64,000 nucleotides of DNA from an uncultured Gammaproteobacteria bacterium (GCA_964550845.1 CAZKAD010000003.1:447-64446), one strand, 5' to 3'; positions 1 through 43,496 are shown, counted from the first letter of the stretch. The notes: generated from the letters alone by a model not told the origin. Translations and numbers: made by a program.

Positions 1-52
1 AGTATGTCCAGATGGCTAAAGGAAAGAATTGTCCATCCAAAGAAAAATTCGA

Positions 53-1699
53 ATGCGGAAGCAAGAAGAGTTGGAATTTGAGCTTGTTCGACTCCCACAC
101 AGGCGGAAAATAGAACCCCCCTTGTTCCCAAAAATGCCACAACTCTATCTTGATCTGCTTGGAAACACGAAGAAGATGAAGAAAGATTATGTACATTCTG
201 GTAAGGAATTTGTTCCAAACTATGATAAAGCTCCCTTCCCCAACTATTTTCAAAGTTCTAATTTTGATTATCAACCTGCCAAACGAGAAATTGACGACAG
301 TAATTTTAATATTGACGATAAGGATGAACAAGAAAAGAATGACCATAGCCAAACCGAAAAGTCTAATGACCGCGAAGATAAAAAGCAAAATAGTAATATT
401 CATGACATTTTTCAAAAAGCAAGAGATCGTCACCGAGACAAAGATCGGGAAGGAGATCTGGAAGGAGATAAAGACCGACATCGGGACTCGAGAGACAAAG
501 ATCGAGACTCGAGAGATCGGCATCGAGACAAAGATCGAGAAAGAGATAAAGACCGACATCGAGACTCGAGAGATCGGCATCGAGACAAAGATCGAGACTC
601 GAGAGATCGGCATCGAGAAAGAGATAAAGACCGACATCGAGACAAAGATCGAGACTCGAGAGATCGGCATCGAGACAAAGATCGAGACTCGAGAGAAAAA
701 GACAGACATCGAGATTCAAGAGACCGTCATCGAGATTCAAGAGATTCAAGAGACCGACATCGAGATTCAAGAGACGGAGATGATTCGGATAGAAACGAAC
801 ACGGCGACCCTCTTACGGATTTTCTTCAAGGAACAAGACACATTCGCCACACAAAGGACGCGAGAACACATGTTTCAACTGTCTCCTCAAAGCCGGCTAA
901 CAGAATGCCTCCTTCTCTCACAGAAATCGAAGAGGGTGGAGCTTTTAGTGGAGGTATTCGCAATTTGAATTATGTCTCGAAACAAACCCTTGAAGAGGAA
1001 GCGAAACTTCGAGAATATTTGTTCAAATGGGAATTGATTCGTAATGCGAACAAAGATAAAGCCGCCGAACTTCCTAAGTTTACCATACACAATAAATTGG
1101 ATCAAGTTGTATCTGCTTATGATGACTGGAATCGAAAGACGCAAATTCCTATCGTGATTAATCGCTATCGAAAGTGGCTAATTGGAAGTTTCCATGCTAT
1201 TCAATGGCTTGCCCCTACAATAGGTCTTGATATGTCAGGATTTGTTGAACAACAAAAAGAAGAAATGGACGAATATGAAAAATTGTTGATTGAACTTGGT
1301 GAAAAATCTTGGATGCCTAAATCGAGTTGGCCAGTAGAACTACGTATTGTTCTTGCTGTACTCGGTTCGGCTCTTTCGTTTGCTGCCCAGAAATTGGTAA
1401 TTGATACTATTATGGGTGGAGAATCCAAGTCCGGACAACCCGGACAGCCAATAACTCCTCCAAAACCTCAAAATATTTCAAAACCTATGCCCAAACCTTC
1501 AATTAAGCTTGCAGACTTGCCTGGAGCAAAGAAACAAGAAGAGAAAAAACCTTTAGCGATACCCGAAAAGGCGGCTCTAAATACTCAAAATACTCCGAGC
1601 ACTTCGACCACTCAAAATGGAAAGAATAATTCGCCTCCACTCGAAGAAAAGAAATCTGAGCCAGATAAAAAGCCGGTCATTCCAGTTAAACGTTCCTAA
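53..1699 (+). CDS. RD/RH dipeptide-repeat protein (approx. 120 aa of RDRHRDKDRDS-type repeats) with a C-terminal globular region and a Pro/Lys-rich tail
   Basis: Long ORF. The listed start at 29 is a TTG; the first ATG is at 53, preceded by an in-frame stop at 17-19. The periodic charged repeat and the non-repetitive C-terminal half look protein-like. Confidence 0.6.
   Translation: MRKQEELEFELVRLPHRRKIEPPLFPKMPQLYLDLLGNTKKMKKDYVHSGKEFVPNYDKAPFPNYFQSSNFDYQPAKREIDDSNFNIDDKDEQEKNDHSQTEKSNDREDKKQNSNIHDIFQKARDRHRDKDREGDLEGDKDRHRDSRDKDRDSRDRHRDKDRERDKDRHRDSRDRHRDKDRDSRDRHRERDKDRHRDKDRDSRDRHRDKDRDSREKDRHRDSRDRHRDSRDSRDRHRDSRDGDDSDRNEHGDPLTDFLQGTRHIRHTKDARTHVSTVSSKPANRMPPSLTEIEEGGAFSGGIRNLNYVSKQTLEEEAKLREYLFKWELIRNANKDKAAELPKFTIHNKLDQVVSAYDDWNRKTQIPIVINRYRKWLIGSFHAIQWLAPTIGLDMSGFVEQQKEEMDEYEKLLIELGEKSWMPKSSWPVELRIVLAVLGSALSFAAQKLVIDTIMGGESKSGQPGQPITPPKPQNISKPMPKPSIKLADLPGAKKQEEKKPLAIPEKAALNTQNTPSTSTTQNGKNNSPPLEEKKSEPDKKPVIPVKRS
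430..780. repeat. Coding tandem repeat array with an approx. 33-nt unit (cgagacaaagatcgagactcgagagatcggcat and variants) that encodes the RD/RH repeats
   Basis: Direct reading of near-identical units. The antisense and alternate-frame ORFs at 189..968, 363..770 and 430..678 are artefacts of this periodicity. Confidence 0.85.
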
Positions 1700-1740
1700 T
1701 GGGCTGGTCGAAATAAAATAAAATTTTCTTCTTTTTTGAA

Positions 1741-2277
1741 ATGGGATCATCGACAAAGAAACGACAGAGTAAAAACACGGAGAGGAAGTCGAGACGAAAA
1801 CGGACTTCAGGCCGAAAAAAGAAAAGTAAGCTTCGAAGTCCTTCACATCGAAAAAGGACAAAGAGCAAGCTTCGAAGTCCTTCACATCGAAAAAGGACAA
1901 AGAGCAAGCTTCGAAGTCCTTCACATCGAAAAAGGTCTTCGTATGGAAAAGCATTTGCAATAGTTAAGTTCGAACTATTCGACGAAAGTACTCAGCTCAA
2001 ATATCCTCCACAAGGAGATGAAATTCGAAAGTGGTACGATCAATTATTTGCTAAAATATCACCAATGTACAATGATTTGAACAAGGATGTTTATCTCCTC
2101 TCGAAAAGATGGCTAAGTGATGCTGAACTGAAGCTAACTTTTGTCACATCACTGAAAGATCAATCAGAAGTTGATACATTACTTGAACTTTTAACGGATC
2201 TTGATGATGACGGAAATTATCCAATTCGGGGAATGTTAGTCATACCAAAGGTCTTATCAATTGAATATTCATTTTGA
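1741..2277 (+). CDS. Basic repeat protein (KSKLRSPSHRKRT x3 at the N-terminus) with a C-terminal globular domain; possible DNA-binding or core protein
   Basis: ORF with a 39-nt triple repeat (1830..1935) that encodes Lys/Arg/Ser-Pro motifs. The C-terminal 100 aa are non-repetitive. Confidence 0.55.
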   Translation: MGSSTKKRQSKNTERKSRRKRTSGRKKKSKLRSPSHRKRTKSKLRSPSHRKRTKSKLRSPSHRKRSSYGKAFAIVKFELFDESTQLKYPPQGDEIRKWYDQLFAKISPMYNDLNKDVYLLSKRWLSDAELKLTFVTSLKDQSEVDTLLELLTDLDDDGNYPIRGMLVIPKVLSIEYSF

Positions 2278-2310
2278 AAAAATTTTTTCTTCTCTTCCAA
2301 AACAAAACGA

Positions 2311-2586
2311 ATGGCGAAATCAAAATCGAGATCGCGGCGATCAAAATCGCGACGATCGAAGAGTAAATCTCGATCAAAGCGATCAAAGAAGTATTCTTGC
2401 AAACGTGTCAAGCCAAAGAAGCGAAGCAAGTCGAAGAAATCGAAGCGAGCAAAGAAATCAAAGAAGGAGAAGGTTGAATCAACTCAGTCTCATTCTTTGT
2501 TGGCTAGATTGTCACGCACGAGTGCGAGCGCTGCACCTGCAGACGCGCCAATTGAATGGAAAGCAGGAGTAAATTGGGTAAAGTAA
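2311..2586 (+). CDS. Protamine-like, highly basic SR/KS/KR-rich small protein
   Basis: 91 aa, more than 60% K/R/S (SKSRSRRSKSRRSKSKSRSKRSKK...). The context among other basic proteins supports a real gene rather than a frame artefact. Confidence 0.5.
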   Translation: MAKSKSRSRRSKSRRSKSKSRSKRSKKYSCKRVKPKKRSKSKKSKRAKKSKKEKVESTQSHSLLARLSRTSASAAPADAPIEWKAGVNWVK

Positions 2587-2594
2587 AAAATTGA
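2587..2594 (+). promoter_or_regulatory. AAAATTGA octamer (Mimiviridae-type early promoter) upstream of the Skp1-like gene
   Basis: Exact octamer 66 nt upstream of the ATG at 2660. It is immediately followed by a perfect hairpin, ATCTGGGgtttCCCAGAT (2601..2618), after the stop of the preceding gene. Confidence 0.5.
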
Positions 2595-2659
2595 TTTTTT
2601 ATCTGGGGTTTCCCAGATAAAAATAACAAAATAACATAAATCTTAATCTCACAATCGAA

Positions 2660-3277
2660 ATGTCTACTGAAGAACAAAAGATCGAAACGTCTACTAACGA
2701 ACAAAAGATGGAAATTGAAGGACTTGATGCTGGAGTACAAGATGATTTCATCAAATTGAATTGTCGGGATAAAGTAATCGTTTCTGTGCATAGAAGAGCC
2801 TGTAGACTGTCTTCCTTGTTTCGAGGTTTACTCGAAACTCAGCCATGTGCGCCCGAGCATGAGGTTAAACAGATCGACTCTCATATCATGAAGCTAATTG
2901 TTGAATATCTTGAACATTATCGATACGAAGAACCGAAGATTCTGGAACCTCCATTGAAGACTCCTGATCTAAAGGATCACGCCTCGGAATGGGATTGCAA
3001 GTTTGTTGCATACGACACCCCCGAACAGATGGGAACTTTTCTGACGCTGCTCAATGCGGCAAATTTCTTGGAAATTATTTCGCTGAGAAATCTTTGCTGT
3101 GCAAAGTTCGCCACATTTCTCAAAACTAAAAATGTTGATGCATTGAAGGCATTGTTTAATGTGAAAGCCACGTTGACTCCCAAAGAAGAAAACGAAATTC
3201 GAAAGAAGTACCCCGAATACTTTGCTTGGTTGAAGTCTTCGCAAGAGACAAAAACCGAGAGTAAAGTTGACGAATAG
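2660..3277 (+). CDS. Skp1 homolog (adaptor subunit of SCF ubiquitin ligases)
   Basis: Aligns with Skp1 along its length. The N-terminal BTB/POZ-like part is ...KLNCRDKVIVSVHRRACRLSSLFRGLLE... The C-terminal F-box-binding part is EWDCKFVAYDTPEQMGTFLTLLNAANFLEIISLRNLCCAKFATFLKTKNVDALKALFNVKATLTPKEENEIRKKYPEYFAW, compared with Skp1 [54 protein letters not shown]...EEEAQVRKENQW. The true start may be Met17 (2708). Confidence 0.8.
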   Translation: MSTEEQKIETSTNEQKMEIEGLDAGVQDDFIKLNCRDKVIVSVHRRACRLSSLFRGLLETQPCAPEHEVKQIDSHIMKLIVEYLEHYRYEEPKILEPPLKTPDLKDHASEWDCKFVAYDTPEQMGTFLTLLNAANFLEIISLRNLCCAKFATFLKTKNVDALKALFNVKATLTPKEENEIRKKYPEYFAWLKSSQETKTESKVDE

Positions 3278-3392
3278 CCGAACTCATTGATGTGTGTAAA
3301 TTCGATAATAAAATGATTTTAATTCTTCTCGAAGAACTAAAAATAATACGTACTACTTACTTAAAATAATCTTCAGATGAGAAAGTAAAGTT

Positions 3393-3806
3393 ATGCTAAC
3401 TTTTATTTTTATTCGAAGGATCAATATGTACCATTTTCTTAAGAATTGTTTTCCTTCGTTGACACGCAAAACATACAATTACACTGTCCGATCTCCAAGC
3501 TTTCAAGGATGGGTGATTGGAAAACATCAAAATATTGATGTCTGTTGCTGTGCCATATTCCGTAAAGGACCAAAAATAAAAATGGGCTTATTTGCGGTGC
3601 TTCCACACTATCAAAACAAAGGTTTTGGGAGAGAAATGTACAAATATCTCTGTAATCAATATCATTCTTTCCAATGGACAACTAACACACAAAAAGCATA
3701 CAATTTTTGGATCAAATGCGGAGCCATATTAATTGATACTTACATTATGGATGGAGTTAAATACCATCTGTTCAAGAACGCGCCAGTCGAAGAAAAAAAG
3801 AAATAA
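3393..3806 (+). CDS. Small GNAT-family acetyltransferase-like protein
   Basis: LPHYQNKGFGREMYKYL resembles GNAT motif A (Q/R-x-x-G-x-G/A). Confidence 0.4.
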   Translation: MLTFIFIRRINMYHFLKNCFPSLTRKTYNYTVRSPSFQGWVIGKHQNIDVCCCAIFRKGPKIKMGLFAVLPHYQNKGFGREMYKYLCNQYHSFQWTTNTQKAYNFWIKCGAILIDTYIMDGVKYHLFKNAPVEEKKK

Positions 3807-3892
3807 TTTCCTTTGGGAAATTATTAATTAAACGTCCTTGAAGGACTTTTAAGCGTCCTCGAGAAGGACTTTTAAACGTTCTCGAAAAGAAC
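3805..3892. terminator. Array of 3'-end hairpins shared by the convergent genes 3393..3806 and 3896..4123
   Basis: AATTTCCtttGGGAAATT overlaps the TAA stop. It is followed by TTAAACGTCCttgaaGGAC, GCGTCCtcgagaaGGAC and ACGTTCtcgaaaaGAAC. Confidence 0.6.
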
Positions 3893-3895
3893 TCT

Positions 3896-4123
3896 TTAAA
3901 AATATTTTTCAACCTTATCCTGCATGCTGTCAGGCACAAAAAGATGGTATCCTCCATAGAGAACTCCTAGAGAACCTCCAATAATCATGACGGTATGAAG
4001 GAAAGTTAGAATATTCATTTGAGTACTGGCAACTTGTTGACCATTTCGGCATTTTCGTTCCGAGTCAAGAGCCAATGAGGCGTAGACAAGAATAAAAGCA
4101 GCGACAATAAAAACTGCAAGCAT
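3896..4123 (-). CDS. Small membrane protein with two predicted TM helices
   Basis: 75-aa ORF with two hydrophobic stretches (AVFIVAAFILVYASLAL; VMIIGGSLGVLYGGY). It is convergent with 3393..3806 and shares the terminator hairpins. Confidence 0.4.
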   Translation of the reverse strand: MLAVFIVAAFILVYASLALDSERKCRNGQQVASTQMNILTFLHTVMIIGGSLGVLYGGYHLFVPDSMQDKVEKYF

Positions 4124-4159
4124 TTTCCTTTGGAAGGAAGAAAAAAGAATTTTCTTTTT

Positions 4160-4687
4160 TCAGGGAATGATTGGCTCCGAGACACAATAGACATACCCGT
4201 TATTGAACAAATTTCCATTGGTGGTGAGAGAAAGGGTTTGCATACTGCCATTCAAAAAGAGAGAAATTTTACGCTGAACGAGTGTAAGCTTAATCTTCGG
4301 ATTTCGTGTTGGTAAAATAACTTGCTGGGAAAATAAGTCATCAGGTCCCCGAACCAAGTCGAAAATATGAGCCCCAATAAACTGTGTTGCTTCGGCTCGA
4401 TCAAGACTAAGCAACATTTTTTGAACATCTTTCGGAAGTGAATCGTCCGGTACAACCAGTAAAGTCACTTTTGCTTTCGGATCATTGAGAAGATCTGGAA
4501 AATGTGTTTTTTCAACAAGAGTTTTGTAGATGGAAAAATTTTTATCTTGAAGAGCACTGTAAATTGTCCCCGGTTGAGGAGTCCAAGCAAGATAAGGATT
4601 TTTTGCAAGTGCTCGATCAAAACGAAGTTCACCTACACTGGGAAACTCTTTCGACCATTCTACGTTATACCCGCTGGTGACTGACAT
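4160..4687 (-). CDS. Fasciclin (FAS1)-like domain protein
   Basis: KVTLLVVPDDSLPKDVQKMLLSLDRAEATQFIGAHIF...NGYVYCVSEPIIP matches the FAS1 pattern TVFAPTNEAF..LP......IL.YHVV...NGVIHVID.VL.P. Confidence 0.45.
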   Translation of the reverse strand: MSVTSGYNVEWSKEFPSVGELRFDRALAKNPYLAWTPQPGTIYSALQDKNFSIYKTLVEKTHFPDLLNDPKAKVTLLVVPDDSLPKDVQKMLLSLDRAEATQFIGAHIFDLVRGPDDLFSQQVILPTRNPKIKLTLVQRKISLFLNGSMQTLSLTTNGNLFNNGYVYCVSEPIIP

Positions 4688-4741
4688 CTTTTACAGAAAA
4701 AGATTTTATTTTTCTACGAATAAAAGTTTGACCCCTTCTAA

Positions 4742-5959
4742 ATGTCTTCTTTTTGGCTTGAGGATCCAACAGAATTGTTCCGAAATTTGGAGCTTCTTCC
4801 AAATCCAGGGAGCAATATCGCGTCAAAGTTGAATGCGCTTACGAGATTGGCAGTTGTAGTCGGACTTGGAATTTATCTTCTTAATAAGGACTCAAAAGAG
4901 TCGAGCTCTCTCTGTATAATCACATTTGGTATTCTTCTTTTGTTCATCGTAATCACTGCTTATTATTCAAAGAGTAAGGAAGGTTTCCGACCTCCTCCGA
5001 TGCCAGTAGTTGAAAAGCCTACGCCAACATATCCTCTATCTTCACCAACCGTCAACCTCTCTGGATTGCAAGCAACCCCATTGTGGTATGATCCAAAATA
5101 CGGAGCTGGACCAAAAGAATATCGAGACCCTCCAGTAATTCCACCAAATCCGGCTGATGCTAAATTTTGGGGAGGATTTCAATCGAGGATTAATGAACCT
5201 CGACCACAAATTATTCACTCGAATGTTGAAAGTGTTCTGTTCAAAAATGAACAACCTTATTCACAGCGAATTAGCCTTCCCTCTCGACAGAGAAAAGGAT
5301 TTAAAATTCTTGGTGGACCTCATCAAGACGAACCTGAAATTCCATTTGTTATTGATGACCAGGGACTAAACCCCCCGAATTACACTCGTATTCGAGGATA
5401 TTCGATGCATGATCCGAGTGTTCCTCCTTATTCGAATCTTGAGCTATTATCACCAAGTCAATCTTTTGTTCCGGGAGCTCAAGTCCCTTCGGGACGGTCT
5501 CAACTTCATGCTTATGATGACTTTGCAAATGTTTGGTCTGCCGGAAACACTGACTTTTTGACCTCTAAGATGGCTATTCATCGTACTCATCCCGCGGTTG
5601 ATACTGGAGAATTCCGTCAAGCTTCCACAATTGGTCTGGCAGATTCAATGTACAATCCAACATTTAAACCGTTTGACCCGGCAAGCACTTATTTTAAGAC
5701 CAGTAATAACCCTTATGACGGTTTGTTCATTGGACGAAGTCTAATTGAACACGTTGATATGCGAGCTCCAAATGGTGAAGTTCTTCCCGGTTATTTGAGA
5801 ATGGGATTTACCAGCGACGACTTTATGGATGAAGCGACAAGTCGTCAAGAAGCAGATGAATTGTACTTTCGAGAAGCAATGGTTGCCGATGTTCGTGCTC
5901 GGATGAATGAGCGAGAGCAAGAATTCCGAATGGCACCTGTAATGAATCATTTCATGTAA
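4742..5959 (+). CDS. Pro-rich membrane protein (hypothetical)
   Basis: 405-aa ORF with N-terminal TM segments (LAVVVGLGIYLL; IITFGILLLFIVITAYY) followed by a long Pro-rich region. Confidence 0.6.
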   Translation: MSSFWLEDPTELFRNLELLPNPGSNIASKLNALTRLAVVVGLGIYLLNKDSKESSSLCIITFGILLLFIVITAYYSKSKEGFRPPPMPVVEKPTPTYPLSSPTVNLSGLQATPLWYDPKYGAGPKEYRDPPVIPPNPADAKFWGGFQSRINEPRPQIIHSNVESVLFKNEQPYSQRISLPSRQRKGFKILGGPHQDEPEIPFVIDDQGLNPPNYTRIRGYSMHDPSVPPYSNLELLSPSQSFVPGAQVPSGRSQLHAYDDFANVWSAGNTDFLTSKMAIHRTHPAVDTGEFRQASTIGLADSMYNPTFKPFDPASTYFKTSNNPYDGLFIGRSLIEHVDMRAPNGEVLPGYLRMGFTSDDFMDEATSRQEADELYFREAMVADVRARMNEREQEFRMAPVMNHFM

Positions 5960-6047
5960 AGTGAGAAGTGTAAAGTCCTAAGTAAAAGAAGCATAAAAAT
6001 TGACTCTTTTCTTCTTTTGAAGGAAGAAAAGATTTAATTAATACCCG

Positions 6048-6782
6048 ATGTCACATTCGCCCCAAAAAGGAAATAATCACTGGTCACCAGAATTTGAACG
6101 ATCTCTCCGAGTCATACATGATTATTGTGCTGGATATAGTTGGATGTATTCGCGAGATATTCAAGTTTACACAAAATATTCTTATTATTTGTCAGGTGCA
6201 ATTTTCTTGGTAAGTACTTTATCAAGTTTACTCAATACAATTCAAACTTCTTTTTCAATTGACGATAAAATTTTTGATGCAATCATCGTGATCGTCTCGT
6301 GGTTAACTGTAACATTTTATACCGCATCATACATTAAAGATTATTCAGCCGTGATTAAAGAATTGAACAATCACAAAGCAGAATATGTCGATTTAGCCAA
6401 TACGATTGATCGGCAACTTCAACTTCCACCCGAAGAAAGAGAAAATGTTGAAGATTTTCATCGATGGATTTCGAGTTATTATCAATTACTTGGAAGATGG
6501 TCAGTCGAAATTCTACCTCGGACAGTAGAACAATATCGCGTTCATGCCCAAAAAGAAAATGTTCCCTTCCCGGACGAATTGATCGATTCCTCGAGTAAGA
6601 GATTGACTCAAAAGGAAAATGAAAAGAAGATTGATTTGTTGATTGACAAAGCACTTGCGAATCAAGAACAGAAAGAAGAAAAGAAAGAAGAAAAGAAAGG
6701 GACCCTTCGTGATAAAGATAAAAAAGTTAACCTTTATCAGATTCAATATGAACTCGAACGACTTCGAGGGCACGCCGATTGA
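6048..6782 (+). CDS. Hypothetical membrane protein with a K/E-rich C-terminus
   Basis: 244-aa ORF with TM segments (GAIFLVSTLSSLL; AIIVIVSWLTVTFY). Confidence 0.55.
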   Translation: MSHSPQKGNNHWSPEFERSLRVIHDYCAGYSWMYSRDIQVYTKYSYYLSGAIFLVSTLSSLLNTIQTSFSIDDKIFDAIIVIVSWLTVTFYTASYIKDYSAVIKELNNHKAEYVDLANTIDRQLQLPPEERENVEDFHRWISSYYQLLGRWSVEILPRTVEQYRVHAQKENVPFPDELIDSSSKRLTQKENEKKIDLLIDKALANQEQKEEKKEEKKGTLRDKDKKVNLYQIQYELERLRGHAD

Positions 6783-6886
6783 CAAAGATTGAAATTTTAA
6801 TCCATTATTTTGAAAGTATAGATAAAATTTGTTTAGTATATATACTAAATAAATTAACTGCCTCAAAGATTGAATATTGATTAAGG

Positions 6887-6894
6887 AAAATTGA
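6887..6894 (+). promoter_or_regulatory. AAAATTGA octamer upstream of the cap-modifying enzyme gene
   Basis: Exact octamer 34 nt upstream of the ATG at 6928. Confidence 0.5.
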
Positions 6895-6927
6895 TCCTTT
6901 TTTTCTTTCAATCGGAAAGGAAAGCGA

Positions 6928-9900
6928 ATGGCTGTCTTCTTCGCAAAAAGTCGGGACCCATTTTCAAACTTTTATCCGGTCTCATTTACTGTCGATGATT
7001 TGAAATACTCGAGTTCGGAACAGTATTTTATGGCCTCGAAAGCGAGATTCTTTAAAGATGTTGAAGCGGAGGACCAGATTATGGAAGCGGAATCTCCGAA
7101 AGAACAAAGAGAACTTGGACGTTCAGTCAAAAAGTTTGATCCAAGAGAATGGGATCGAGTTAAATTTAAAATCATGAAACAAGCCCTGTTGATTAAATTT
7201 CAACTTCCAAAGATGAAAAAGTTCCTTGTTGAGAGTCAACGAAAAGTTTTAATTGAAGCTGCACCTTGGGACGCGATTTGGGGAATTGGAATGGATGCTG
7301 ATAAAGCTGTGAATACACCCTTTCGTGAATGGGGAAAGAATGGACTTGGATTCTTATTGATGGAAGTTCGAGATTTTCTCCAAGGTAATTGGATTCAAGA
7401 AGACTTTGGTGTCTCAATGATTGGAAATTTCTATATCGGTGCACATCCAACTGAAGACCAAGCAAAGTTTCTTTTGGGAAAAGGAGTGAATCTATTTGTC
7501 TCCCTTGAGGAAAATCCAAGATATTTATCAGTTGTTGGTCAAGCATCGTCAAAAGTTTTTGCTCTTCCTACAGGAGGTATTCGAAATGATCAAGAGACAC
7601 TTGAATTTCTCGGTTGGTTACGAGATCAATATTTTCTCGGAAAAATCATTTATCTCCATAGTCGAAGAGGAATTGGAAGAACCGGATTGATTGCCAGTTT
7701 ATTTCTGAACTTGTTTCTCGGATATCAACCAAGTGATGCGTTGGATAAAGTTCGAAAATCTATTCATAGTCGAACTAATTTTAACCAGTCCTTCGGGACG
7801 TTTAAGCTTAAATTTATGCCTATTCCAGAAACTGCTTCACAAATAACTCAATTCACTCGTCTTGCCGACGGTGATAAAACCGATATTGATATGTCTGCTT
7901 ATACTCTTGAAGCAGAGAAAGCATGGATGACAAAACTTTCTGAAATTGAGCAAGACGACTTGATGACACGGGAAGATGTCGAATTGTATCAACAAATTGT
8001 ATCTCCTTCCTCTTCTTCAAAGGAAGTGAAAAAGGAAGATGAAATTAAACGTCTTGAAAAGTCTCTTAATCTTCCTGTTGGTGCAATTGAAGATGAGCAA
8101 GAAAATGACCCTCTTGCGGGTGCACTCGCAGAACTTGAACTTCGAAAGAGTGAAGAGAAGGAAGAACTTCGAAAGAGTGAAGAGAAGGAAGAACTTCGAA
8201 AGAGTGAAGAGAAGGACCCATTTGAAGCTGAACTTGAAGCGTTTGAAAATGAGGGTAAAAAAGATCCGCTCGAAGCTGAACTCGAGGCATTTGAGAATGA
8301 AGTAATCGAGCCTGACATCAAAACTTTCCTTGAAGAAGAGGCTAAAGTTGAAGTTAAACAACGAACTTCATTGACCGATCGAGATCTCGAAGAACAATTT
8401 CGACGTTTCGCTAATCAAGAACTTCATCTTCAAGCCGAGGAAGGTACATTTGTTCTTCAATCTGTCTTGAATGATATTTTCAATCGTTTTCTCGAACAAC
8501 AAAATATTCAAATTATCGATGTCGATAAGTTTGAACAAATCGCAATTCCCCTAATTGGAGAACCAGAGAAAATCGAATCAAAAATTCCCGAGTATGATGG
8601 AGATAAATATATTGAATCAAAAGTGTCAAAGTTGAATACTGGTTATCGAGTCAACTTTCGACTTCTTCCCGATGCAAATATTCGAATTACAAAAGTAAAA
8701 TCGCCAAAGCGATCACAAAAGAAGAAATCGAAAAGTGAAACTTTGTCTGAGAAAAAAGATGTTTCTCAATTGAGTCAAATTGAACCACCGAAAGAAGAGG
8801 TGAAAGAAGTGAAGATCGAGAAAAAACTTTCGTCATTTTTGTCCCATTTCTTCCCTGGCGATATTACCTTCATTCAACCGAATATCAATTTCACCGAAGA
8901 AACTTTGCATTATATGTCTCCAATGAGTAAAGCCGACAAACTCGCCGCATTACTTAAGACATATCCTCGTGCACAATTAGTTGTCGATGTTTTTGCTGGT
9001 ATTGGAGGCAATACACTTGGATTTGCTCGTGCAGGATTGCGTGTAGTCGCATATGAACGAGATCCGGAACGATTTAAAATGTTGAGAAATAACGTCCTTC
9101 ATTATCGGTTTGAGAAACAAGTGACGACGATTCGAGGAGAATTTAACCCCGGAAAAGATCTCGATATTATTCGAACTATTCAAAAGATTGAAGCAGACAA
9201 AGTAGTCTTCTTCTTTGATCCTCCATGGCTTCCATCTTTTGTCCAAAACTTTGACAAGTCACAATACATCTTAACTGGAATTACTCTTGCCGGTCAACTA
9301 CTTGAAGACATTGCTAAGAAAACTTTGCAGGAATATGGAGGATCGATATTTCATTTGCCTCCCGGTTACTCACTCAATTTGGCTGGAAGAATTGTTGATG
9401 ATAAATCTGATAACAAAGCGAGATTGATTTACTTTTTTGGCGATCAAATTCAAGCCAATATTGCCAAAGATTACAAACTGCAGATCAATTATGCAACTGA
9501 ATTTCCACGTGAACAATCCGAGGTCAAATATTCTCAAAATGAGTTAGTTGAACAACTGAAAGAAGTTGAACAACAAAAAGTGGAAGCTAAATTGTATCAA
9601 CCTCCGGTCAAAACAGTCTCGGTGGTCTTTCAAACTTTTCTGAATAAAAGCTTTCCTCGACGATCATATCAACATGAACCTTTCCATCCGAAAGCGGTTC
9701 ATAGTGGACAGCGAAAATTACTCTTGTCCGAGATTGAATTCTTGACTCGAGTTCTCTCAAAGGAAAAAACACTCGGTAAAGGCGGATCTTATACTATGCT
9801 TTACGTTGGAGCCGCGCCAGGAATTCATATTCCTTTGCTTGCAAATAAGTTTCCTGAAGTCAAGTTTATTTTGTATGATCCGGCCAAATTTGATATTGCT

Positions 9901-10542
9901 CCATCATCTCAGATCGAAATTCATCGAGAACTTTTCACTGATGAAAAAGTCGAAATGTACAAGAAGACTGAAAATTTATTGTTTGTGAGTGATATTCGAT
10001 CGACGCCGAAACAATTCGATCCAAATCAATCCGGCTTTGATTCGAGTTTTGAACAAGAGGTGATTTTTAACATGGAGCAACAAAAGAAATGGGTGACGGA
10101 ACTTCAACCACTCAGAAGTCTACTTAAATTTCGTCTTCCTTACAATGATCCTGAAAACCCTCGAGATGAACAGGAAACATTTAAATATCTTGATGGTATT
10201 CTTTTTTTCCAAGCTTATCCTCCAGAGCAATCAGGAGAAACTCGGCTTGAAGTTGGACTTCCGTTGAAAGAGACTGGTTATTTTCTTGCCCAGTATGAAC
10301 AGCAAATGTTTTATTTTAATACTCGATATCGGATTCAATCCTTCTCTCATTATTCACAATTTTACGGATGGTCTTATGATACTCTGAGAGAATACTTTAT
10401 TCTTCAAAACTATTACAAATTTCGTGGGATTATCGACAGTGATAAGAAGATCGAATATGATTTTCAAGATCACGACCGGATGGCTCACGGCCCGGAAAAG
10501 AAGATTTTTAACATTCTTCGTAACGCGGCAAAATACGGATAA
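6928..10542 (+). CDS. Multidomain RNA cap-modifying protein: NADAR (YbiA-like) domain, dual-specificity phosphatase / Mce1-like RNA triphosphatase-like domain with the catalytic Cys replaced by Ser, an acidic coiled-coil linker, a Tgs1-like cap guanine-N2 methyltransferase and a poxvirus VP39-like cap 2'-O-methyltransferase
   Basis: NADAR: FSNFYP...SSEQYFMASKARFF...LGR...W....IMKQALLIKFQ...LIEAAPWDAIWGIGMD...LGFLLMEVRDFL, which follows the YbiA consensus. PTP-like: IYLHSRRGIGRTGL, a Cx5R P-loop in which the Cys is Ser (agt at the catalytic position). Tgs1-like: VVDVFAGIGGNTLGFARAGLRVVAYERDP...FFFDPPW. VP39-like: HSGQRKLLLSEIEFLT...GGSYTMLYVGAAPGIHI...KFILYDP, compared with vaccinia VP39 FEGQKKLL..EF / VVYIGSAPGTHI. 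No guanylyltransferase KxDG motif was seen. Confidence 0.85.
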   Translation: MAVFFAKSRDPFSNFYPVSFTVDDLKYSSSEQYFMASKARFFKDVEAEDQIMEAESPKEQRELGRSVKKFDPREWDRVKFKIMKQALLIKFQLPKMKKFLVESQRKVLIEAAPWDAIWGIGMDADKAVNTPFREWGKNGLGFLLMEVRDFLQGNWIQEDFGVSMIGNFYIGAHPTEDQAKFLLGKGVNLFVSLEENPRYLSVVGQASSKVFALPTGGIRNDQETLEFLGWLRDQYFLGKIIYLHSRRGIGRTGLIASLFLNLFLGYQPSDALDKVRKSIHSRTNFNQSFGTFKLKFMPIPETASQITQFTRLADGDKTDIDMSAYTLEAEKAWMTKLSEIEQDDLMTREDVELYQQIVSPSSSSKEVKKEDEIKRLEKSLNLPVGAIEDEQENDPLAGALAELELRKSEEKEELRKSEEKEELRKSEEKDPFEAELEAFENEGKKDPLEAELEAFENEVIEPDIKTFLEEEAKVEVKQRTSLTDRDLEEQFRRFANQELHLQAEEGTFVLQSVLNDIFNRFLEQQNIQIIDVDKFEQIAIPLIGEPEKIESKIPEYDGDKYIESKVSKLNTGYRVNFRLLPDANIRITKVKSPKRSQKKKSKSETLSEKKDVSQLSQIEPPKEEVKEVKIEKKLSSFLSHFFPGDITFIQPNINFTEETLHYMSPMSKADKLAALLKTYPRAQLVVDVFAGIGGNTLGFARAGLRVVAYERDPERFKMLRNNVLHYRFEKQVTTIRGEFNPGKDLDIIRTIQKIEADKVVFFFDPPWLPSFVQNFDKSQYILTGITLAGQLLEDIAKKTLQEYGGSIFHLPPGYSLNLAGRIVDDKSDNKARLIYFFGDQIQANIAKDYKLQINYATEFPREQSEVKYSQNELVEQLKEVEQQKVEAKLYQPPVKTVSVVFQTFLNKSFPRRSYQHEPFHPKAVHSGQRKLLLSEIEFLTRVLSKEKTLGKGGSYTMLYVGAAPGIHIPLLANKFPEVKFILYDPAKFDIAPSSQIEIHRELFTDEKVEMYKKTENLLFVSDIRSTPKQFDPNQSGFDSSFEQEVIFNMEQQKKWVTELQPLRSLLKFRLPYNDPENPRDEQETFKYLDGILFFQAYPPEQSGETRLEVGLPLKETGYFLAQYEQQMFYFNTRYRIQSFSHYSQFYGWSYDTLREYFILQNYYKFRGIIDSDKKIEYDFQDHDRMAHGPEKKIFNILRNAAKYG

Positions 10543-28670: not shown

Positions 28671-29510
28671 TCAATTTTCGAAATTAAAATAAGCTGACGA
28701 ATATATTTGTTCAATTGATGGTCTTTTATCAGGGTCTTTATTCAACATCAAAGTAATCGATTCTTTTGCTTGGTCCGAAAAATGTTTCGGAAATGAAATT
28801 TCAGCATTAATAATTTGTCTGAGAGTGTCTGGTTGTTCCTCCATTTCAAATGGAGGAAAGCCGGCTAAGCATTCATAAAGCAAAATTCCAATTTGCCAAA
28901 CATCGACCTTTTTAGTGTCATACAAATTAAGCTGATATTCTTCTCCGTCTTTCAGGTCAGAATTCTGATAAAGAATACCTTTTGCCATTTCGGGACTCAG
29001 ATAATCGAGAGTTCCTCGAAGCTTTCCATACATTAATTTTTTCGTACTATGCCCCCAATCCGCAAGCTTGTAAGTAATCCTATTCTCAAAACTTACACTA
29101 ATGATATTTTCCGGTTTAATATCGAGATGGGCAATATTTTTTTGATGTGCAGATAAGAGACCCGCAAGTACATCTCGAATTATTTGTTTGGTCAACGTTT
29201 CATCAAATCGTTCTTGTTCTACGAGTAATTTGTATAAACTACTAAAACCAAGTTCAAAACCTATACACGGACGTTCTCCATTCAAATCAAAGCCAAAATA
29301 CGCTTGAATAATATTCGGATGTCTTGGTAAGGAAAGATTAATTTTAATTTCATTCTGAATTACGCTTCTTTCATATGCATTTTCTATTTTACAATTGAAG
29401 ACTTTCAAAGCGCAATATTTTCTATCTTCTTTTCTTCGAGCCAAATAAACAGATGCATATTTGCCTGATCCAAGAGGCTTTCCAATTTCAAAATCTCGAA
29501 GCGTATTCAT
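28671..29510 (-). CDS. Serine/threonine protein kinase
   Basis: Motifs LGSGKYASVYLARRK (Gly loop), ALKVF (VAIK Lys), HLDIKPENI (catalytic loop), DWG (DFG variant), SPE and DVWQIGILLYECLAGFPPF. TCAATTTT (the reverse complement of AAAATTGA) lies 32 nt upstream at 29542..29549. Confidence 0.85.
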   Translation of the reverse strand: MNTLRDFEIGKPLGSGKYASVYLARRKEDRKYCALKVFNCKIENAYERSVIQNEIKINLSLPRHPNIIQAYFGFDLNGERPCIGFELGFSSLYKLLVEQERFDETLTKQIIRDVLAGLLSAHQKNIAHLDIKPENIISVSFENRITYKLADWGHSTKKLMYGKLRGTLDYLSPEMAKGILYQNSDLKDGEEYQLNLYDTKKVDVWQIGILLYECLAGFPPFEMEEQPDTLRQIINAEISFPKHFSDQAKESITLMLNKDPDKRPSIEQIYSSAYFNFEN

Positions 29511-40966: not shown

Positions 40967-42179
40967 ATTCTGCTTCAAAAAAGCTTTCAATATCATTGTA
41001 AATACGATTAATCAAGGATTCATCGGCAACTTTCTCTTGAATAGCTTTATTAAGATTTTGTTTGAATTCTGGCAAACGCGATTTGTCAACTTTGCTAACC
41101 GCACTAATCATTTCGGGTATTTCCTCTTGCTTTATCTTAGGATCTAGAATAGACACAATTGTTAAAGCCAATGCAAAATGATCTGCTTTCACAGAAGGTG
41201 GAATGTGATAATTCAATGCATCTAACAATCCAGATGTTTTATCGACATTTCGACATTGAAGCAACGAAGAACTCTCTTTTGTAAAACAACTCTTTCCGAG
41301 ATCTGACAGCGTGGCAACCGGTTTTCCATTTTTCTCGAAGACGAGAATGTTCTTTGGTGCAATTCTTCCATGAACAATACCGTACATATGGAGTACTTCA
41401 AGTTGGTTGTATATTTGGTCGTAAATATCTTCCACCCATTTTGATTTCAATTCTGAAGGCAGTTCAAACAACGGAATTCCAGGATTCCATTTGTAGACCA
41501 GATAGATTATGTTCGGACTAACCTTAAAATCAAGTAACGGAATAAATTCGTTTTCAAATTGAGAGCCGAGTTGGTTCGAAATTTCCCTTAACATTTCAAG
41601 TTCGTGAAGAGGGATAAACTTTCCCATTCCTCCCACAGTGTTTTTCATTGATTTAATGAAAACCTTTTCTTTAGTTGTATCGTCCTGGCCTTCGTATGCA
41701 ATTGATTCTCCATTTGATGAGATTTGCCTTCCAATTGAAAAAGATTTGTTAGAATCGGTAACAAATCCGATTCGACTTCGAGAAATTTCTCCAATACTTT
41801 TTGGAAGTTGAGGTGAAAATTCGGCGATTAATCTTTTCGAGTTACGAAGAGAAGGGAACTTTTCTCGTGATTTTGAACGGAGCTTTTCAGCGAGTAAGTA
41901 ATCTGCATTTTCGGGTAAGATCCGAATTGGCGACGTTCTTTTTGGATGATCATTCAATTTTCTCTTTCCACTATAAGTTTTGATTGATGCTTTTCTCTTC
42001 GAGGAACTCTTCCTTTTCTTCGGACTTGGACTCTTCCTTTTCTTTGGACTCTTCCTTTTCTTTGGGCTTCGAGAAGATTTACGACTTTGTCGCTTTGATC
42101 GGGAAGATTTACGATTTCGTCTCTTTGATCGGGAAGATTTACGACTTTGTCGCTTTGATCGAGATTTTGATTTGGGCAT
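40965..42179 (-). CDS. Protein-kinase-like domain (probable pseudokinase) fused to an N-terminal SPKK/RS-rich basic tail
   Basis: N-terminus MPKSKSRSKRQSRKSSRSKRRNRKSSRSKRQSRKSSRSPKKRKSPKKRKSPSPKKRKSS. Kinase-like core: VFIKSMK, IVHGRIAPKNILVF (where canonical HRDLKPENIL has its catalytic Asp replaced) and LSDLGKS (DLG). Confidence 0.65.
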   Translation of the reverse strand: MPKSKSRSKRQSRKSSRSKRRNRKSSRSKRQSRKSSRSPKKRKSPKKRKSPSPKKRKSSSKRKASIKTYSGKRKLNDHPKRTSPIRILPENADYLLAEKLRSKSREKFPSLRNSKRLIAEFSPQLPKSIGEISRSRIGFVTDSNKSFSIGRQISSNGESIAYEGQDDTTKEKVFIKSMKNTVGGMGKFIPLHELEMLREISNQLGSQFENEFIPLLDFKVSPNIIYLVYKWNPGIPLFELPSELKSKWVEDIYDQIYNQLEVLHMYGIVHGRIAPKNILVFEKNGKPVATLSDLGKSCFTKESSSLLQCRNVDKTSGLLDALNYHIPPSVKADHFALALTIVSILDPKIKQEEIPEMISAVSKVDKSRLPEFKQNLNKAIQEKVADESLINRIYNDIESFFEAE

Positions 42180-42205: not shown

Positions 42206-43198
42206 TTAATCAAATATTTTTCGAGAAATTTCAACCAATTCGGCATCATGTTGAATCATTTTGCTCAATTCTTCTCGAAAAGATACTTTTTGCGCAGCCT
42301 TGACCGGAAGATATTGAACAAACTTTTGCTTATAAGCAATTCGAATCCCTTGTTCAAGAAGTTGATGGTATAAAATACCTTGTTTAAAGGTCTTAAACTC
42401 TTCTTCATGTCCGGAAAGAATCAATTTGAATTTTAAATTTTGTTCTGGTTTGAGTAATTGAATTACATTATGATCAAGAGGTAAACTGGCATGAATAGTT
42501 TTCTTCCTTGGAGGATAAATGTTAACTGGAATTATTTCTTTAGTCTCAAGTCGATATTCAGTGAGTAGACAATCTTGAGTCTCTCCAAATGAAACTTGCA
42601 TTGAAGAACCAGTATAATGCAAATTGGGAAAAGGTGTTTGACGGTCGTGAATATGACCAGAGATCATCAAAGGATACTTTTCATCCCAATCTTCAACATT
42701 TTCTGCGACAATAGCACCCATTTTCACTTTATTAAATAATTGATGTCCAAAGAAAAGATCAAAATTTTCAATCTTTTCACCAGAGACTTCAACTGCTTCT
42801 CGAAATCTCCCATCTGGCAGATATGGCATCATGCATATGTTATATTTTTTGTCTTGATGGAAAAGTTCAACTTTAGTTAGACGATCTACAATTTGATGAT
42901 CTTTCTTCCATGTTAAATAAGGATGGAGATCTGAGAGAAATTGCGCATTGTTTACATACTCATGATTGCCAACTAGAACATAAGTCGAAGAGTATTTTTC
43001 GCAAAGTTGTACATATTCGAGCATCTTATTCAGACAGAGAGTATGTAAAGTTTCATGTGTATGAAGAGTGTCACCGAGGATAATAATCAATTGATATTTT
43101 GATTGACTCAAATGTTTCTCAAGTTGTGTAAGAAAGACATTAATTTCTGCAAGATTACTCGGTTGAATATGAAGATCTCCAAGAGCCAAAATACTCAT
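42206..43198 (-). CDS. Calcineurin-like metallophosphoesterase
   Basis: Motifs ALGDLH, ILGDTLH, GNHEY and SGHIHD. Start set at the internal Met (MSILALGDLH), which removes the overlap with 43227..43496. Confidence 0.7.
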   Translation of the reverse strand: MSILALGDLHIQPSNLAEINVFLTQLEKHLSQSKYQLIIILGDTLHTHETLHTLCLNKMLEYVQLCEKYSSTYVLVGNHEYVNNAQFLSDLHPYLTWKKDHQIVDRLTKVELFHQDKKYNICMMPYLPDGRFREAVEVSGEKIENFDLFFGHQLFNKVKMGAIVAENVEDWDEKYPLMISGHIHDRQTPFPNLHYTGSSMQVSFGETQDCLLTEYRLETKEIIPVNIYPPRKKTIHASLPLDHNVIQLLKPEQNLKFKLILSGHEEEFKTFKQGILYHQLLEQGIRIAYKQKFVQYLPVKAAQKVSFREELSKMIQHDAELVEISRKIFD

Positions 43199-43226
43199 TT
43201 TATTTCTCAATTGAGAAACAAAACGT

Positions 43227-43496
43227 TCAATTTTTACGAAACGAATTGTACCATTCGCGAAAGACATCTCGGACTTCGGTGTCACTAAGTTTTGCTAACT
43301 CCTCTTTTGAGATGTATTTGAGAAATACCTTCCGGAGATCTTCTTCGGATAAATATTCAAATCCGACAGTTCGATCACGCTTTTTTAATCTTTGATATCT
43401 TTGTTCAATCGCAAACAAGGCTTCTGTTTTTGTATTGAATGGAAGCGTGATTTCAGACAAAATTTCTGGACTTCCTTCATCCTCAAATGATGCCAT
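43227..43496 (-). CDS. Hypothetical small protein
   Basis: 89-aa ORF with ordinary composition. Confidence 0.45.
   Translation of the reverse strand: MASFEDEGSPEILSEITLPFNTKTEALFAIEQRYQRLKKRDRTVGFEYLSEEDLRKVFLKYISKEELAKLSDTEVRDVFREWYNSFRKN

Follow-up and report, generated by a model that had tools for sequence, protein, structure and literature searches.

Three adjacent charged-repeat genes in giant virus DNA: a DUF5767 protein with an Arg-Asp/Arg-His linker and two polycationic proteins that may neutralise DNA

The 64,000-nucleotide (nt) stretch analysed here (CAZKAD010000003.1:447-64446, positions 1-64,000; hereafter the window) is, on its Pfam content, DNA of a giant virus (Nucleocytoviricota, Imitervirales-like). 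Positions 53-2586 hold three consecutive genes on the + strand, P1, P2 and P3, whose products contain highly charged repeats (Table 1). We found that P1 is, by sequence comparison, a conserved viral protein and a member of the DUF5767 family, in which Arg-Asp and Arg-His repeats fill a net-neutral linker. P2 joins a basic repeat tail to a small domain, and P3 is a Lys/Ser/Arg-rich protein encoded by a gene that had escaped annotation. In the account that we favour, and to which we give about even confidence, P1 would be a conserved membrane protein with a spacer, and P2 and P3 would be phospho-regulated DNA neutralisers by analogy with characterised viral proteins.

Three consecutive, same-strand open reading frames (ORFs) for highly charged repeat proteins, as described in the initial annotation of this DNA, are indeed present in 53-2586, and the charged segments of all three are encoded by tandem repeats. 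When the 53 main ORFs of the window were ranked, P1 had the highest charged fraction in any 50-amino-acid (aa) stretch (0.94), and for net positive charge per 50 aa, P3 ranked first and P2 third. The placing of all three proteins in one class did not hold, as P1 is a DUF5767 member whose Arg-Asp/Arg-His (RD/RH) block is net neutral, in contrast to the polycationic P2 and P3. The predicted variation in repeat length was borne out among environmental relatives, which showed two versus three repeats in P2, in-frame block differences in P1 and in-frame indels in P3. In-frame stops in relatives, named beforehand as refuting, were found in none of the three genes. The feature common to P1, P2 and P3 is the fast tandem-repeat evolution of charged disordered segments; the genes are unrelated and their neighbourhood is clade-specific.

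The exact 548-aa sequence of P1 is present as a predicted protein in a public collection. P1 matched the Pfam model of DUF5767 (PF19071) over aa 369-445 with 30.1 bits (gathering cutoff 26.9), and its C-terminal half alone scored 31.4 bits. A database search with P1 using phmmer retrieved 81 homologues with E-values down to 1e-56, all 81 of which carry DUF5767; the search was word-based, and the set is skewed to sequences that share the repeats. In an alignment of 28 homologous sequences, 24 columns were invariant and a further 35 nearly invariant, and these extended over both ends of the protein. Residues L31, Y32, E34, L35, E37, N38 and P55 of the N-terminal motif are nearly invariant among the 28 homologues, and the DUF5767 consensus for this region is VPL...FPxMPRLYLELLENKxKIK...EYVP. 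The family plan continues with an unalignable hydrophilic linker and short LxxLL and PPxLxELE motifs, followed by a conserved helical domain of ~170 aa that ends in WPVELRLL and leads into a hydrophobic helix. In P1 the hydropathy of this helix (Kyte-Doolittle, 19-aa window) peaks at 1.97 (aa 432), W426, P427 and E429 are conserved across the family, and M479 and P482 of the C-terminal motif are invariant. The C-terminal tail of P1 is Pro/Lys/Thr-rich and ~60 residues longer than in the family. P1 is probably anchored in a membrane by the hydrophobic helix.

DUF5767 is an uncharacterised giant-virus family that includes, for example, BQ1_120 of Chrysochromulina parva virus BQ1 (PMC12085832), and it has no member of known function. 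P1 shares with the family the N-terminal motif, a variable linker, the helical domain with its hydrophobic helix and the C-terminal KxKMxGPxIxLxDxP, and differs from it in the 130 aa of Arg-Asp/Arg-His repeats that make up its linker and in its extended C-terminal tail. The AlphaFold model of P1, computed with the alignment, was disordered over aa 47-302, short helices excepted, and had a helical bundle at aa 305-455 with a predicted local distance difference test (pLDDT) score of up to ~90. Foldseek with this model returned nothing from the PDB. Against predicted viral structures (BFVD), it returned uncharacterised proteins of marseille-, pitho-, cedrat-, orpheo-, irido-, asco- and chloro-type viruses at E-values of 1e-8 to 1e-4; the template modelling (TM) scores of these matches were low, the P1 model being mostly disordered, and the fold matches are a lead only. 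On these models, the C-terminal domain of DUF5767 may be ancient within the phylum and part of a phylum-wide family that is not yet unified. When the P1 sequence was compared with PDB chains, the matches were compositional only (Protein Red, E = 0.007, and DHX8). Protein Red, DHX8 and FIP1 match P1 weakly and within the repeat only, and at the level of sequence these likenesses are compositional.

The RD/RH block of P1 contains 42 R, 42 D, 12 H, 10 K and 11 S (D:E 42:6), with 44 RD/DR and 22 RH/HR dipeptides. Its fraction of charged residues is 0.77 at a net charge per residue of +0.03, and its kappa of 0.023 lies below that of all 300 composition-preserving shuffles. The block is a net-neutral polyampholyte in which opposite charges alternate almost perfectly. 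Because its charge is balanced, it is no DNA condenser of the polycation type; that role, which had been proposed for P1 along with its neighbours, is excluded for a net-neutral linker that cannot neutralise DNA. A 33-nt tandem array had been reported in this region. The period is real (558-696, 4.5 copies, 79% matches in Tandem Repeats Finder, TRF) and belongs to an imperfect compound repeat, in which the 90-nt (422-696) and 78-nt (454-745) periods score best, at 281 and 264, respectively, and there is a further period of 57 nt. All periods of at least 21 nt are multiples of 3, and there is one short, overlapping, low-scoring row of period 14.

The P1 array also varies between relatives, with an in-frame block of 30 aa in one contig and a shorter in-frame block in another. 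In close relatives and in the more distant L012 the RD/RH block is kept in kind and not in unit, and the units in L012 are DSRDRHRSER. The linkers of P1 homologues range from 84 to 290 aa, are mostly Ser/Asp-rich with some of mixed charge, and have a net charge near zero or negative. We envisage that P1 would tie a conserved N-terminal peptide to a helical, membrane-associated C-terminal domain via a disordered hydrophilic linker. This linker would be free to vary in length and sequence and would here have been filled by RD/RH repeats generated by slippage. The block would then act as a flexible spacer, possibly self-associating or pH-sensitive, that holds the N-terminal peptide at a variable distance. 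Across the P1 array there are ORFs in other frames at 189-968 (+), 363-770 (-) and 430-678 (-), of 259, 135 and 82 aa, respectively; these shadow ORFs are by-products of the GA-rich repeat and not genes. Beside a distant DUF5767 gene on another contig (L014, ~6076-7158), an uncalled ORF of 360 aa with charged GGDEKEDEKEE repeats was observed, broken by an N run; it is a further low-complexity gene that annotation overlooked.

P2 had been described as having three repeats with SP phospho-acceptor sites, and the sequence confirms three 13-aa units and three RSPS sites. The tandem repeat encodes KSKLRSPSHRKRT twice and KSKLRSPSHRKRS once. Two-repeat alleles (P0085 and P0087) are 99-100% identical to P2 outside the repeat number. 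In the AlphaFold model of P2, pLDDT was below 50 for residues 1-48 of the tail and 50-60 up to residue ~68. The domain that follows (residues 69-177) was predicted to consist of two strands, a helix, two strands, a helix and a final strand, with 10-residue block means of pLDDT from 61 to 91 and values of ~90 over residues 71-100. Foldseek with the P2 model against the PDB gave generic ferredoxin-like matches only, all with E > 0.01, a comparison of the P2 sequence with PDB chains gave nothing meaningful, and there was no Pfam match up to E = 10. When 1.84 billion representative proteins were searched exhaustively by phmmer with only the domain of P2 as query, two clusters were found. One, P0093, is 59% identical to P2 and has a different tail that is again basic and contains RSPSQ and SPSQRR; the other, P0094, is 34% identical and consists of the domain without a tail. 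Scans for further relatives found one distant locus in viral contigs and one in metagenome contigs (L011, 5614-6201, and L013, 2970-3632), where the P2-like gene is flanked by genes for a glycosyltransferase-like protein and RNase III. The C-terminal part of the L011/L013 proteins aligned to the P2 domain with an hhalign probability of 96.7% (E = 3e-10), and in L013 five TPAPKK repeats precede the P2-like domain.

The residues of the P2 DLDDDGNYPI motif that are invariant are D153, D155-D157, G158, N159, Y160, P161 and I162. The motif fits DxDxDG, a pattern of calcium-binding loops, and is a candidate for such a loop. As judged by these alignments, DLDDDGNYPI defines a small, undescribed domain family of giant viruses. 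The dN/dS ratio of P2 was 0.07-0.10 against close relatives and 0.07-0.23 overall. The recurrence of basic repeat tails before the domain, with repeats unrelated in sequence, argues for a functional tail in P2 rather than junk. N-myristoylation was considered for P2, whose sequence begins MGSST, and was rejected by eye: P2 has Lys rather than Ser/Thr at residue 6, and P0093 lacks the Gly.

P3 was called a 91-aa, protamine-like RS/KS protein in the initial annotation. The size, the isoelectric point (pI, 11.9) and the basic, Ser-rich character stand (38% R+K, 23% S), whereas P3 is Lys-rich rather than Arg-rich (23 K versus 12 R). Its N-terminus reads MAKSKSRSRRSKSRRSKSKSRSKRSKK. Residues 1-55 carry a net charge of ~+30, the 36-aa C-terminal part is non-basic, and a Cys is conserved. 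Among ORFs of the window that start with ATG and span at least 70 aa, P3 has the lowest sequence entropy. Searches with P3 returned no Pfam match up to E = 10 and no PDB homologue. The exact sequence was not present in a collection of 15 billion proteins, and a profile search of 5.8 billion proteins gave no homologue at E-values up to 0.01. No gene had been called at the position of P3 in four relatives (L001, L002, L004 and L005), and in L012 a 174-aa antisense shadow ORF (1506-2030, -) had been called over the P3 orthologue (1625-1972, +). Such a record would be expected if P3 were no gene but a spurious ORF in GA-rich DNA between genes, missed by gene callers for that reason. However, the P3 ORF is intact, at 78-115 aa, in 5/5 relatives (the four named and L012), which represent three levels of divergence. 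Its dN/dS was 0.13-0.14 at a dS of ~0.9-1.4, lower than that of the adjacent Skp1 gene (0.185). The counts of differences at codon positions 1/2/3 were 11/9/29 between the window and L004 and 1/0/10 between L004 and L002, with a similar distribution in other pairs, and the indels in the basic part (3, 6 and 51 nt) were all multiples of three. No frame but that of P3 lacked stops in every relative; a second frame was stop-free in 3/5 sequences. The L012 orthologue, next to a P2 that is 59% identical, occupies the equivalent position and retains the MAK start, the SR/KS runs, the Cys and the SLLxRL motif. Because of its dN/dS, third-position excess, in-frame indels, stop-free frame and L012 orthologue, P3 is, on the comparison of these relatives, a real gene under purifying selection, and its reading as a spurious ORF is close to refuted.

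In the account that we favour for P2 and P3, their tails would attach to the phosphate backbone of the viral DNA, whose charge they would neutralise either while the genome is packaged or inside the core. A viral kinase would switch binding off by phosphorylating the many Ser residues of the tails (RSPS, KS and RS sites), and a phosphatase would switch it on again by removing the phosphate. A role of this kind is plausible, as it fits both the anatomy of the proteins and the available precedents. The baculovirus protein P6.9 is a small Arg/Ser protein whose binding to DNA is switched by phosphorylation (PMC6163548). P3 is likewise small (91 aa, < 15 kDa), Ser-rich and polycationic with a pI of ~12 and a conserved Cys, and kinase and phosphatase genes lie within its genome window. 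P3 differs in being Lys-rich and in its 36-aa non-basic C-terminal part, and has no sequence similarity to P6.9. For P2, the closest likeness is to the ascovirus virion protein P64 (SfAV-1a ORF048), which condenses DNA and has 14 tandem 13-aa repeats of SPSQRRSTS(V/K)(A/S)RR (PMC6163548). In both proteins a folded domain is joined to basic 13-aa tandem repeats whose core is SPS(H/Q)R(K/R), and the P2 homologue P0093 holds SPSQRR literally. In contrast to P64, P2 has 3 copies rather than 14, its tail is N-terminal, and its domain is ferredoxin-like, without Cys pairs or a Pfam match, where that of P64 is a virus-specific 2-Cys adaptor (pfam08793). The motif common to P2 and P64, as read from the two sequences, is too short to argue for common descent.

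A similar tail occurs elsewhere in the window on a 404-aa kinase-like protein. Its match to Pkinase is partial (profile positions 12-161 of 263, E = 1.1e-9). The protein begins MPKSKSRSKRQSRKSSRSKRRNRKSSRSKRQSRKSSRSPKKRKSPKKRKSPSPKKRK, and its N-terminal tail (66 aa, 41982-42179) is polycationic and Ser-rich, with a net charge of +28 in 50 aa. The tail contains MPKSKSRSKRQSRKSS..., SPKKRK three times and SKSRSKR runs, and TRF detected a 30-nt unit in 3.1 copies and an 18-nt unit in 2.2 copies (42026-42161). The gene for a calcineurin-like phosphoesterase, a candidate phosphatase, lies directly upstream on the same strand, and this adjacency is also seen in L016 and L017. In PBCV-1, the proteins A278L and A282L each pair a kinase domain with a basic domain, and both were found associated with the DNA of virions (PMC3281028). 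The window protein may resemble them, by architecture only, in carrying a polycationic, Ser-rich tail of 66 aa on a kinase-like domain; it differs in that its tail is a short SPKK/SKSR tandem repeat and, by eye, in having HGR for HRD. The basic-tailed kinase-like protein beside a phosphatase gene would thus parallel the DNA-bound, basic-domain kinases of chlorovirus virions. The other protein kinase of the window, a canonical Ser/Thr kinase of 279 aa and a candidate modifying enzyme, shows HLDIKPEN and DWG motifs in its translation. A common origin of the basic part of P3 and the kinase-like tail was considered and not adopted: the first 23 nt are alike, and the overall identity is inseparable from shared low complexity.

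A different reading of the P1 block would make it a functional Arg-rich mixed-charge domain that self-associates or partitions into condensates (the viral factory or host nuclear speckles), as a functional analogue of the RD domains of U1-70K and similar proteins. By the definition of Greig et al. (60-aa windows, charged fraction at least 0.7, positive/negative ratio 1 +/- 0.3; bioRxiv 10.1101/771592), P1 contains a mixed-charge domain, with 84 qualifying windows over aa 106-256 and a maximum charged fraction of 0.85. Arg predominates over Lys in the block (42 R, 10 K), which is near neutral; the same paper ties these properties to length-dependent condensation, and RD/RH repeats persist, with another unit, in the more distant L012. 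Mixed-charge windows at the equivalent linker position were found in 12/81 homologues, in a set obtained by a shared-word search that favours repeat-sharing sequences. The linker of most homologues is, however, Ser/Asp-rich or of another kind, so mixed charge is no requirement of the family, and P1 is probably membrane-tethered. The block is also unlike the factory scaffolds of giant viruses (mimivirus OLS1/ILS1, noumeavirus NMV_095 and NMV_238, vaccinia H5), whose grammar is one of charge segregation with Glu and Lys enrichment (Rigou et al. 2025; PMC12415211). P1 shares with these scaffolds a long, highly charged, intrinsically disordered region, but its block is the opposite in kind, Asp/Arg-rich and well mixed (kappa 0.023, D:E 42:6, R:K 42:10), as judged by composition and charge patterning. 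With RD domains such as that of U1-70K the block shares an R/D-dominated, near-neutral and perfectly mixed composition; P1 differs from their proteins in being viral and probably membrane-anchored, in the ~9% His of its block and, unlike U1-70K/NELF-E-type RNA-processing proteins, in the absence of an RRM beside the RD repeat, DUF5767 being the only Pfam match of P1. The resemblance is real in composition and, from the comparisons above, involves no homology. We regard the mixed-charge domain reading as doubtful, and P1 as a membrane protein with a spacer remains the one that we prefer.

For P2 and P3, the tails might instead be directed at the host or at RNA, serving to localise the proteins to the nucleus or nucleolus or to bind viral or host RNA, with no part in packaging. 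The KKRK and KRSK runs in P2/P3 are typical of localisation signals, the P2 domain has a generic ferredoxin-like fold of the type found in many RNA-binding and regulatory proteins, and GFP-tagged PN-12 of another giant virus, which has a charged disordered region, proved to be nuclear (PMC12415211). We nevertheless consider this reading unlikely, since no RNA-binding domain was detected in P2 or P3 with Pfam, a similar tail is fused to a kinase-like protein that parallels the DNA-bound virion kinases of chloroviruses, and a charge density of +30 in 55-68 aa is well above what localisation signals need. The initial annotation had also raised mimicry of host SR proteins, U1-70K or splicing factors. 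Ser and basic residues are abundant in P2 and P3, with 10 RS/SR dipeptides in P3 and 5 in the P2 tail. However, neither protein has an RRM or another splicing-factor domain (Pfam, E up to 10), and P1 has none either. P2 and P3 also fall short of the definition of an RS domain (60-aa window, S+R fraction at least 0.6, S/R ratio 1 +/- 1), their maximum S+R fractions being 0.48 and 0.47, respectively, and in P3 Lys outnumbers Arg. In addition, the octamer AAAATTGA and the hairpin that flank the cluster would suggest a mimivirid-like, largely cytoplasmic transcription, a link that we assume and for an octamer that is not enriched overall. Splicing-factor mimicry by P2 and P3 is therefore highly improbable, and DNA neutralisation is the role we continue to favour.

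A number of observations weigh against this preferred account. No sequence or fold relation of P2 or P3 to characterised DNA-binding proteins was detected (Pfam and PDB for both, Foldseek for P2), and P3 is Lys-rich, unlike the Arg-rich P6.9 and protamines. Both P2 and P3 are found only in one narrow clade; if DNA condensation is essential, it must be carried out by other proteins in related viruses. Basic Ser-rich tails are also used to target proteins to the nucleus or nucleolus and to bind RNA. The catalytic loop of the basic-tailed kinase-like protein reads, by eye, HGRIAPKN against HRDxKPxN, with the catalytic Asp seemingly missing, and the protein may be inactive, a pseudokinase. The case for anchoring P1 in a membrane consists of hydropathy and family conservation only. 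The copy-number differences were seen between short-read metagenome assemblies of relatives, which can collapse repeats. Finally, because the P1-P2-P3 order is not conserved outside the clade, the adjacency of the three genes offers, on the contigs compared, no evidence for functional coupling. The order DUF5767, P2, P3, Skp1, GNAT, fasciclin, P9 is kept in close relatives and in L012. Around the DUF5767 genes of more distant viruses the P1-P2-P3 order is not kept and no basic genes lie alongside, and it is likewise not kept around the P2-like genes of L011 and L013.

The organisation and neutralisation of DNA in Imitervirales-like giant viruses are little known, and it was only in 2024 that a condensing protein of mimivirus, the MC1-like gp275, was first put forward (bioRxiv 10.1101/2024.02.22.580433). 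The locus supplies testable candidates in the polycationic P3 missed by gene callers, the basic-tailed P2 and the kinase-like protein with a similar tail. A more ambitious proposal would make P3, P2 and the basic-tailed kinase-like protein a histone-free, phospho-switchable packaging set, with the charge dosage set by repeat copy number and with the co-encoded kinase and phosphatase controlling condensation and release; the P1 block would form condensates or sense pH at the inner membrane of the virion. We consider this a long shot, very unlikely as a whole. Short low-complexity genes like P3 are systematically dropped from giant-virus annotations, to the point that an antisense shadow ORF was called instead in L012. 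P1 is a caution on compositional similarity, its apparent eukaryote-like RD domain being the variable linker of what is probably a conserved viral membrane protein. Current concepts are unchanged by these findings, which add a DUF5767 variant, virus-encoded polycationic repeat proteins and one overlooked gene.

Table 1. Positions in the window of the three genes, their segments, flanking signals and candidate modifying enzymes
Feature	Position	Strand	Basis or description
P1	53-1699	+	548 aa from the first ATG; mechanical ORF begins at TTG 29
P1 conserved N-terminal motif, aa 12-55 (VRLP...FPKMPQLYLDLLGN...EFVP)	86-217	+	Alignment
P1 RD/RH mixed-charge block, aa 123-252 (130 aa)	419-808	+	Compound tandem array; pLDDT < 50
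P1 segment under the Pfam DUF5767 model, aa 369-445	1157-1387	+	Pfam match; AlphaFold helices at 310-454
P1 hydrophobic helix, aa 426-454 (WPVELRIVLAVLGSALSFAAQKLVIDTIM), likely membrane anchor	1328-1414	+	Hydropathy, conservation, predicted helix 428-454
P1 conserved C-terminal motif KPMPKPSIKLADLP	1481-1522	+	Family consensus KRKMxGPxIDLxDIP
P2	1741-2277	+	178 aa; exact sequence in collection (P0084)
P2 basic disordered tail, aa 1-68	1741-1944	+	Net charge ~+30, 31% Ser+Thr, three RSPS sites
P2 39-nt tandem repeat	1828-1935	+	TRF: 2.8 copies, 100% matches, score 216
P2 ferredoxin-like domain, aa 69-178	1945-2274	+	AlphaFold, homologues
P2 DLDDDGNYPI motif (DxDxDG pattern)	2197-2226	+	Invariant in 7/7 sequences; also in L011 and L013
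P3	2311-2586	+	Unannotated, 91 aa, Lys/Ser/Arg-rich; short non-repetitive C-terminal part with SLLARL motif
Octamer AAAATTGA	2587-2594	+	Follows the P3 stop directly; 66 nt before the Skp1 ATG
Hairpin UUUUUAUCUGGG / CCCAGAUAAAAA	2596-2623	+	-15.4 kcal/mol, z = -4.5
Ser/Thr protein kinase, 279 aa, candidate modifying enzyme	28671-29510	-	Pkinase E = 8.8e-45, full length
Kinase-like protein, 404 aa	40965-42179	-	Partial Pkinase match and basic tail
Calcineurin-like phosphoesterase, candidate phosphatase	42206-43285	-	Pfam Metallophos E = 1.1e-9

The octamer AAAATTGA, which we take to be the mimivirid early promoter, is conserved after P3 in L001, L002, L004, L005 and L012. It lies at most 70 nt upstream of about a dozen window genes and is overall not enriched over shuffles. 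Transcripts of mimivirus end at hairpins like the one that follows the octamer. Octamer and hairpin recur together between P3 and Skp1 in relatives; L012 has a hairpin of other sequence at the equivalent position (~1983-2025; -10.6 kcal/mol, z = -4.2), a case of structural conservation, and no comparable hairpin was found between P2 and P3. We speculate that P1, P2 and P3 share a 3' end at the hairpin downstream of P3. An A6T6 palindrome between P2 and P3 was tried as a hairpin terminator and rejected as unstable (-1.2 kcal/mol, z = +0.8).

A heptamer, GTTAAAC, occurs 29 times in the window against 7.6 expected, and no shuffle reached 29. Its sites are mostly intergenic, often paired ~20 nt apart and located 25-60 nt upstream of start codons; examples are 53449/53470/53500, 57194/57214, 58847/58867, 28078/28102, 50977/50998 and 1685-1691, and there is an array at 3828-3900. 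Upstream of the P1 orthologues in L004, L006 and L007, TAGTTAAACATG was observed ~55 nt from the ATG. GTTAAAC is a candidate for a second promoter or terminator motif, distinct from AAAATTGA.

The ORFs of the window are crowded on both strands, and its G+C content is ~37%. The Pfam content comprises the transmembrane helices of the P9 minor capsid protein (P9_TM), collagen repeats, DNA polymerase X, Skp1, a NADAR/phosphatase/methyltransferase/poly(A)-polymerase-regulatory fusion, two protein kinase genes, a D6/D11-like helicase and several giant-virus DUFs. A megablast search of a phage collection with window positions 1-6000 gave no match, and a tRNA scan of the 64-kb window found none. At 54377-56182 (+) the window encodes a hybrid histidine kinase that includes a receiver domain (HisKA, HATPase_c, Response_reg); a signalling gene of this type is unusual in a virus. 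The fusion protein is 1204 aa long (6928-10542, +) and combines NADAR, dual-specificity phosphatase-like, cap guanine-N2 methyltransferase-like and poly(A) polymerase regulatory subunit segments. It too contains a charged repeat, an acidic one at ~8000-8300 that consists of ELRKSEEKE three times and DPLEAELEAFENE twice.

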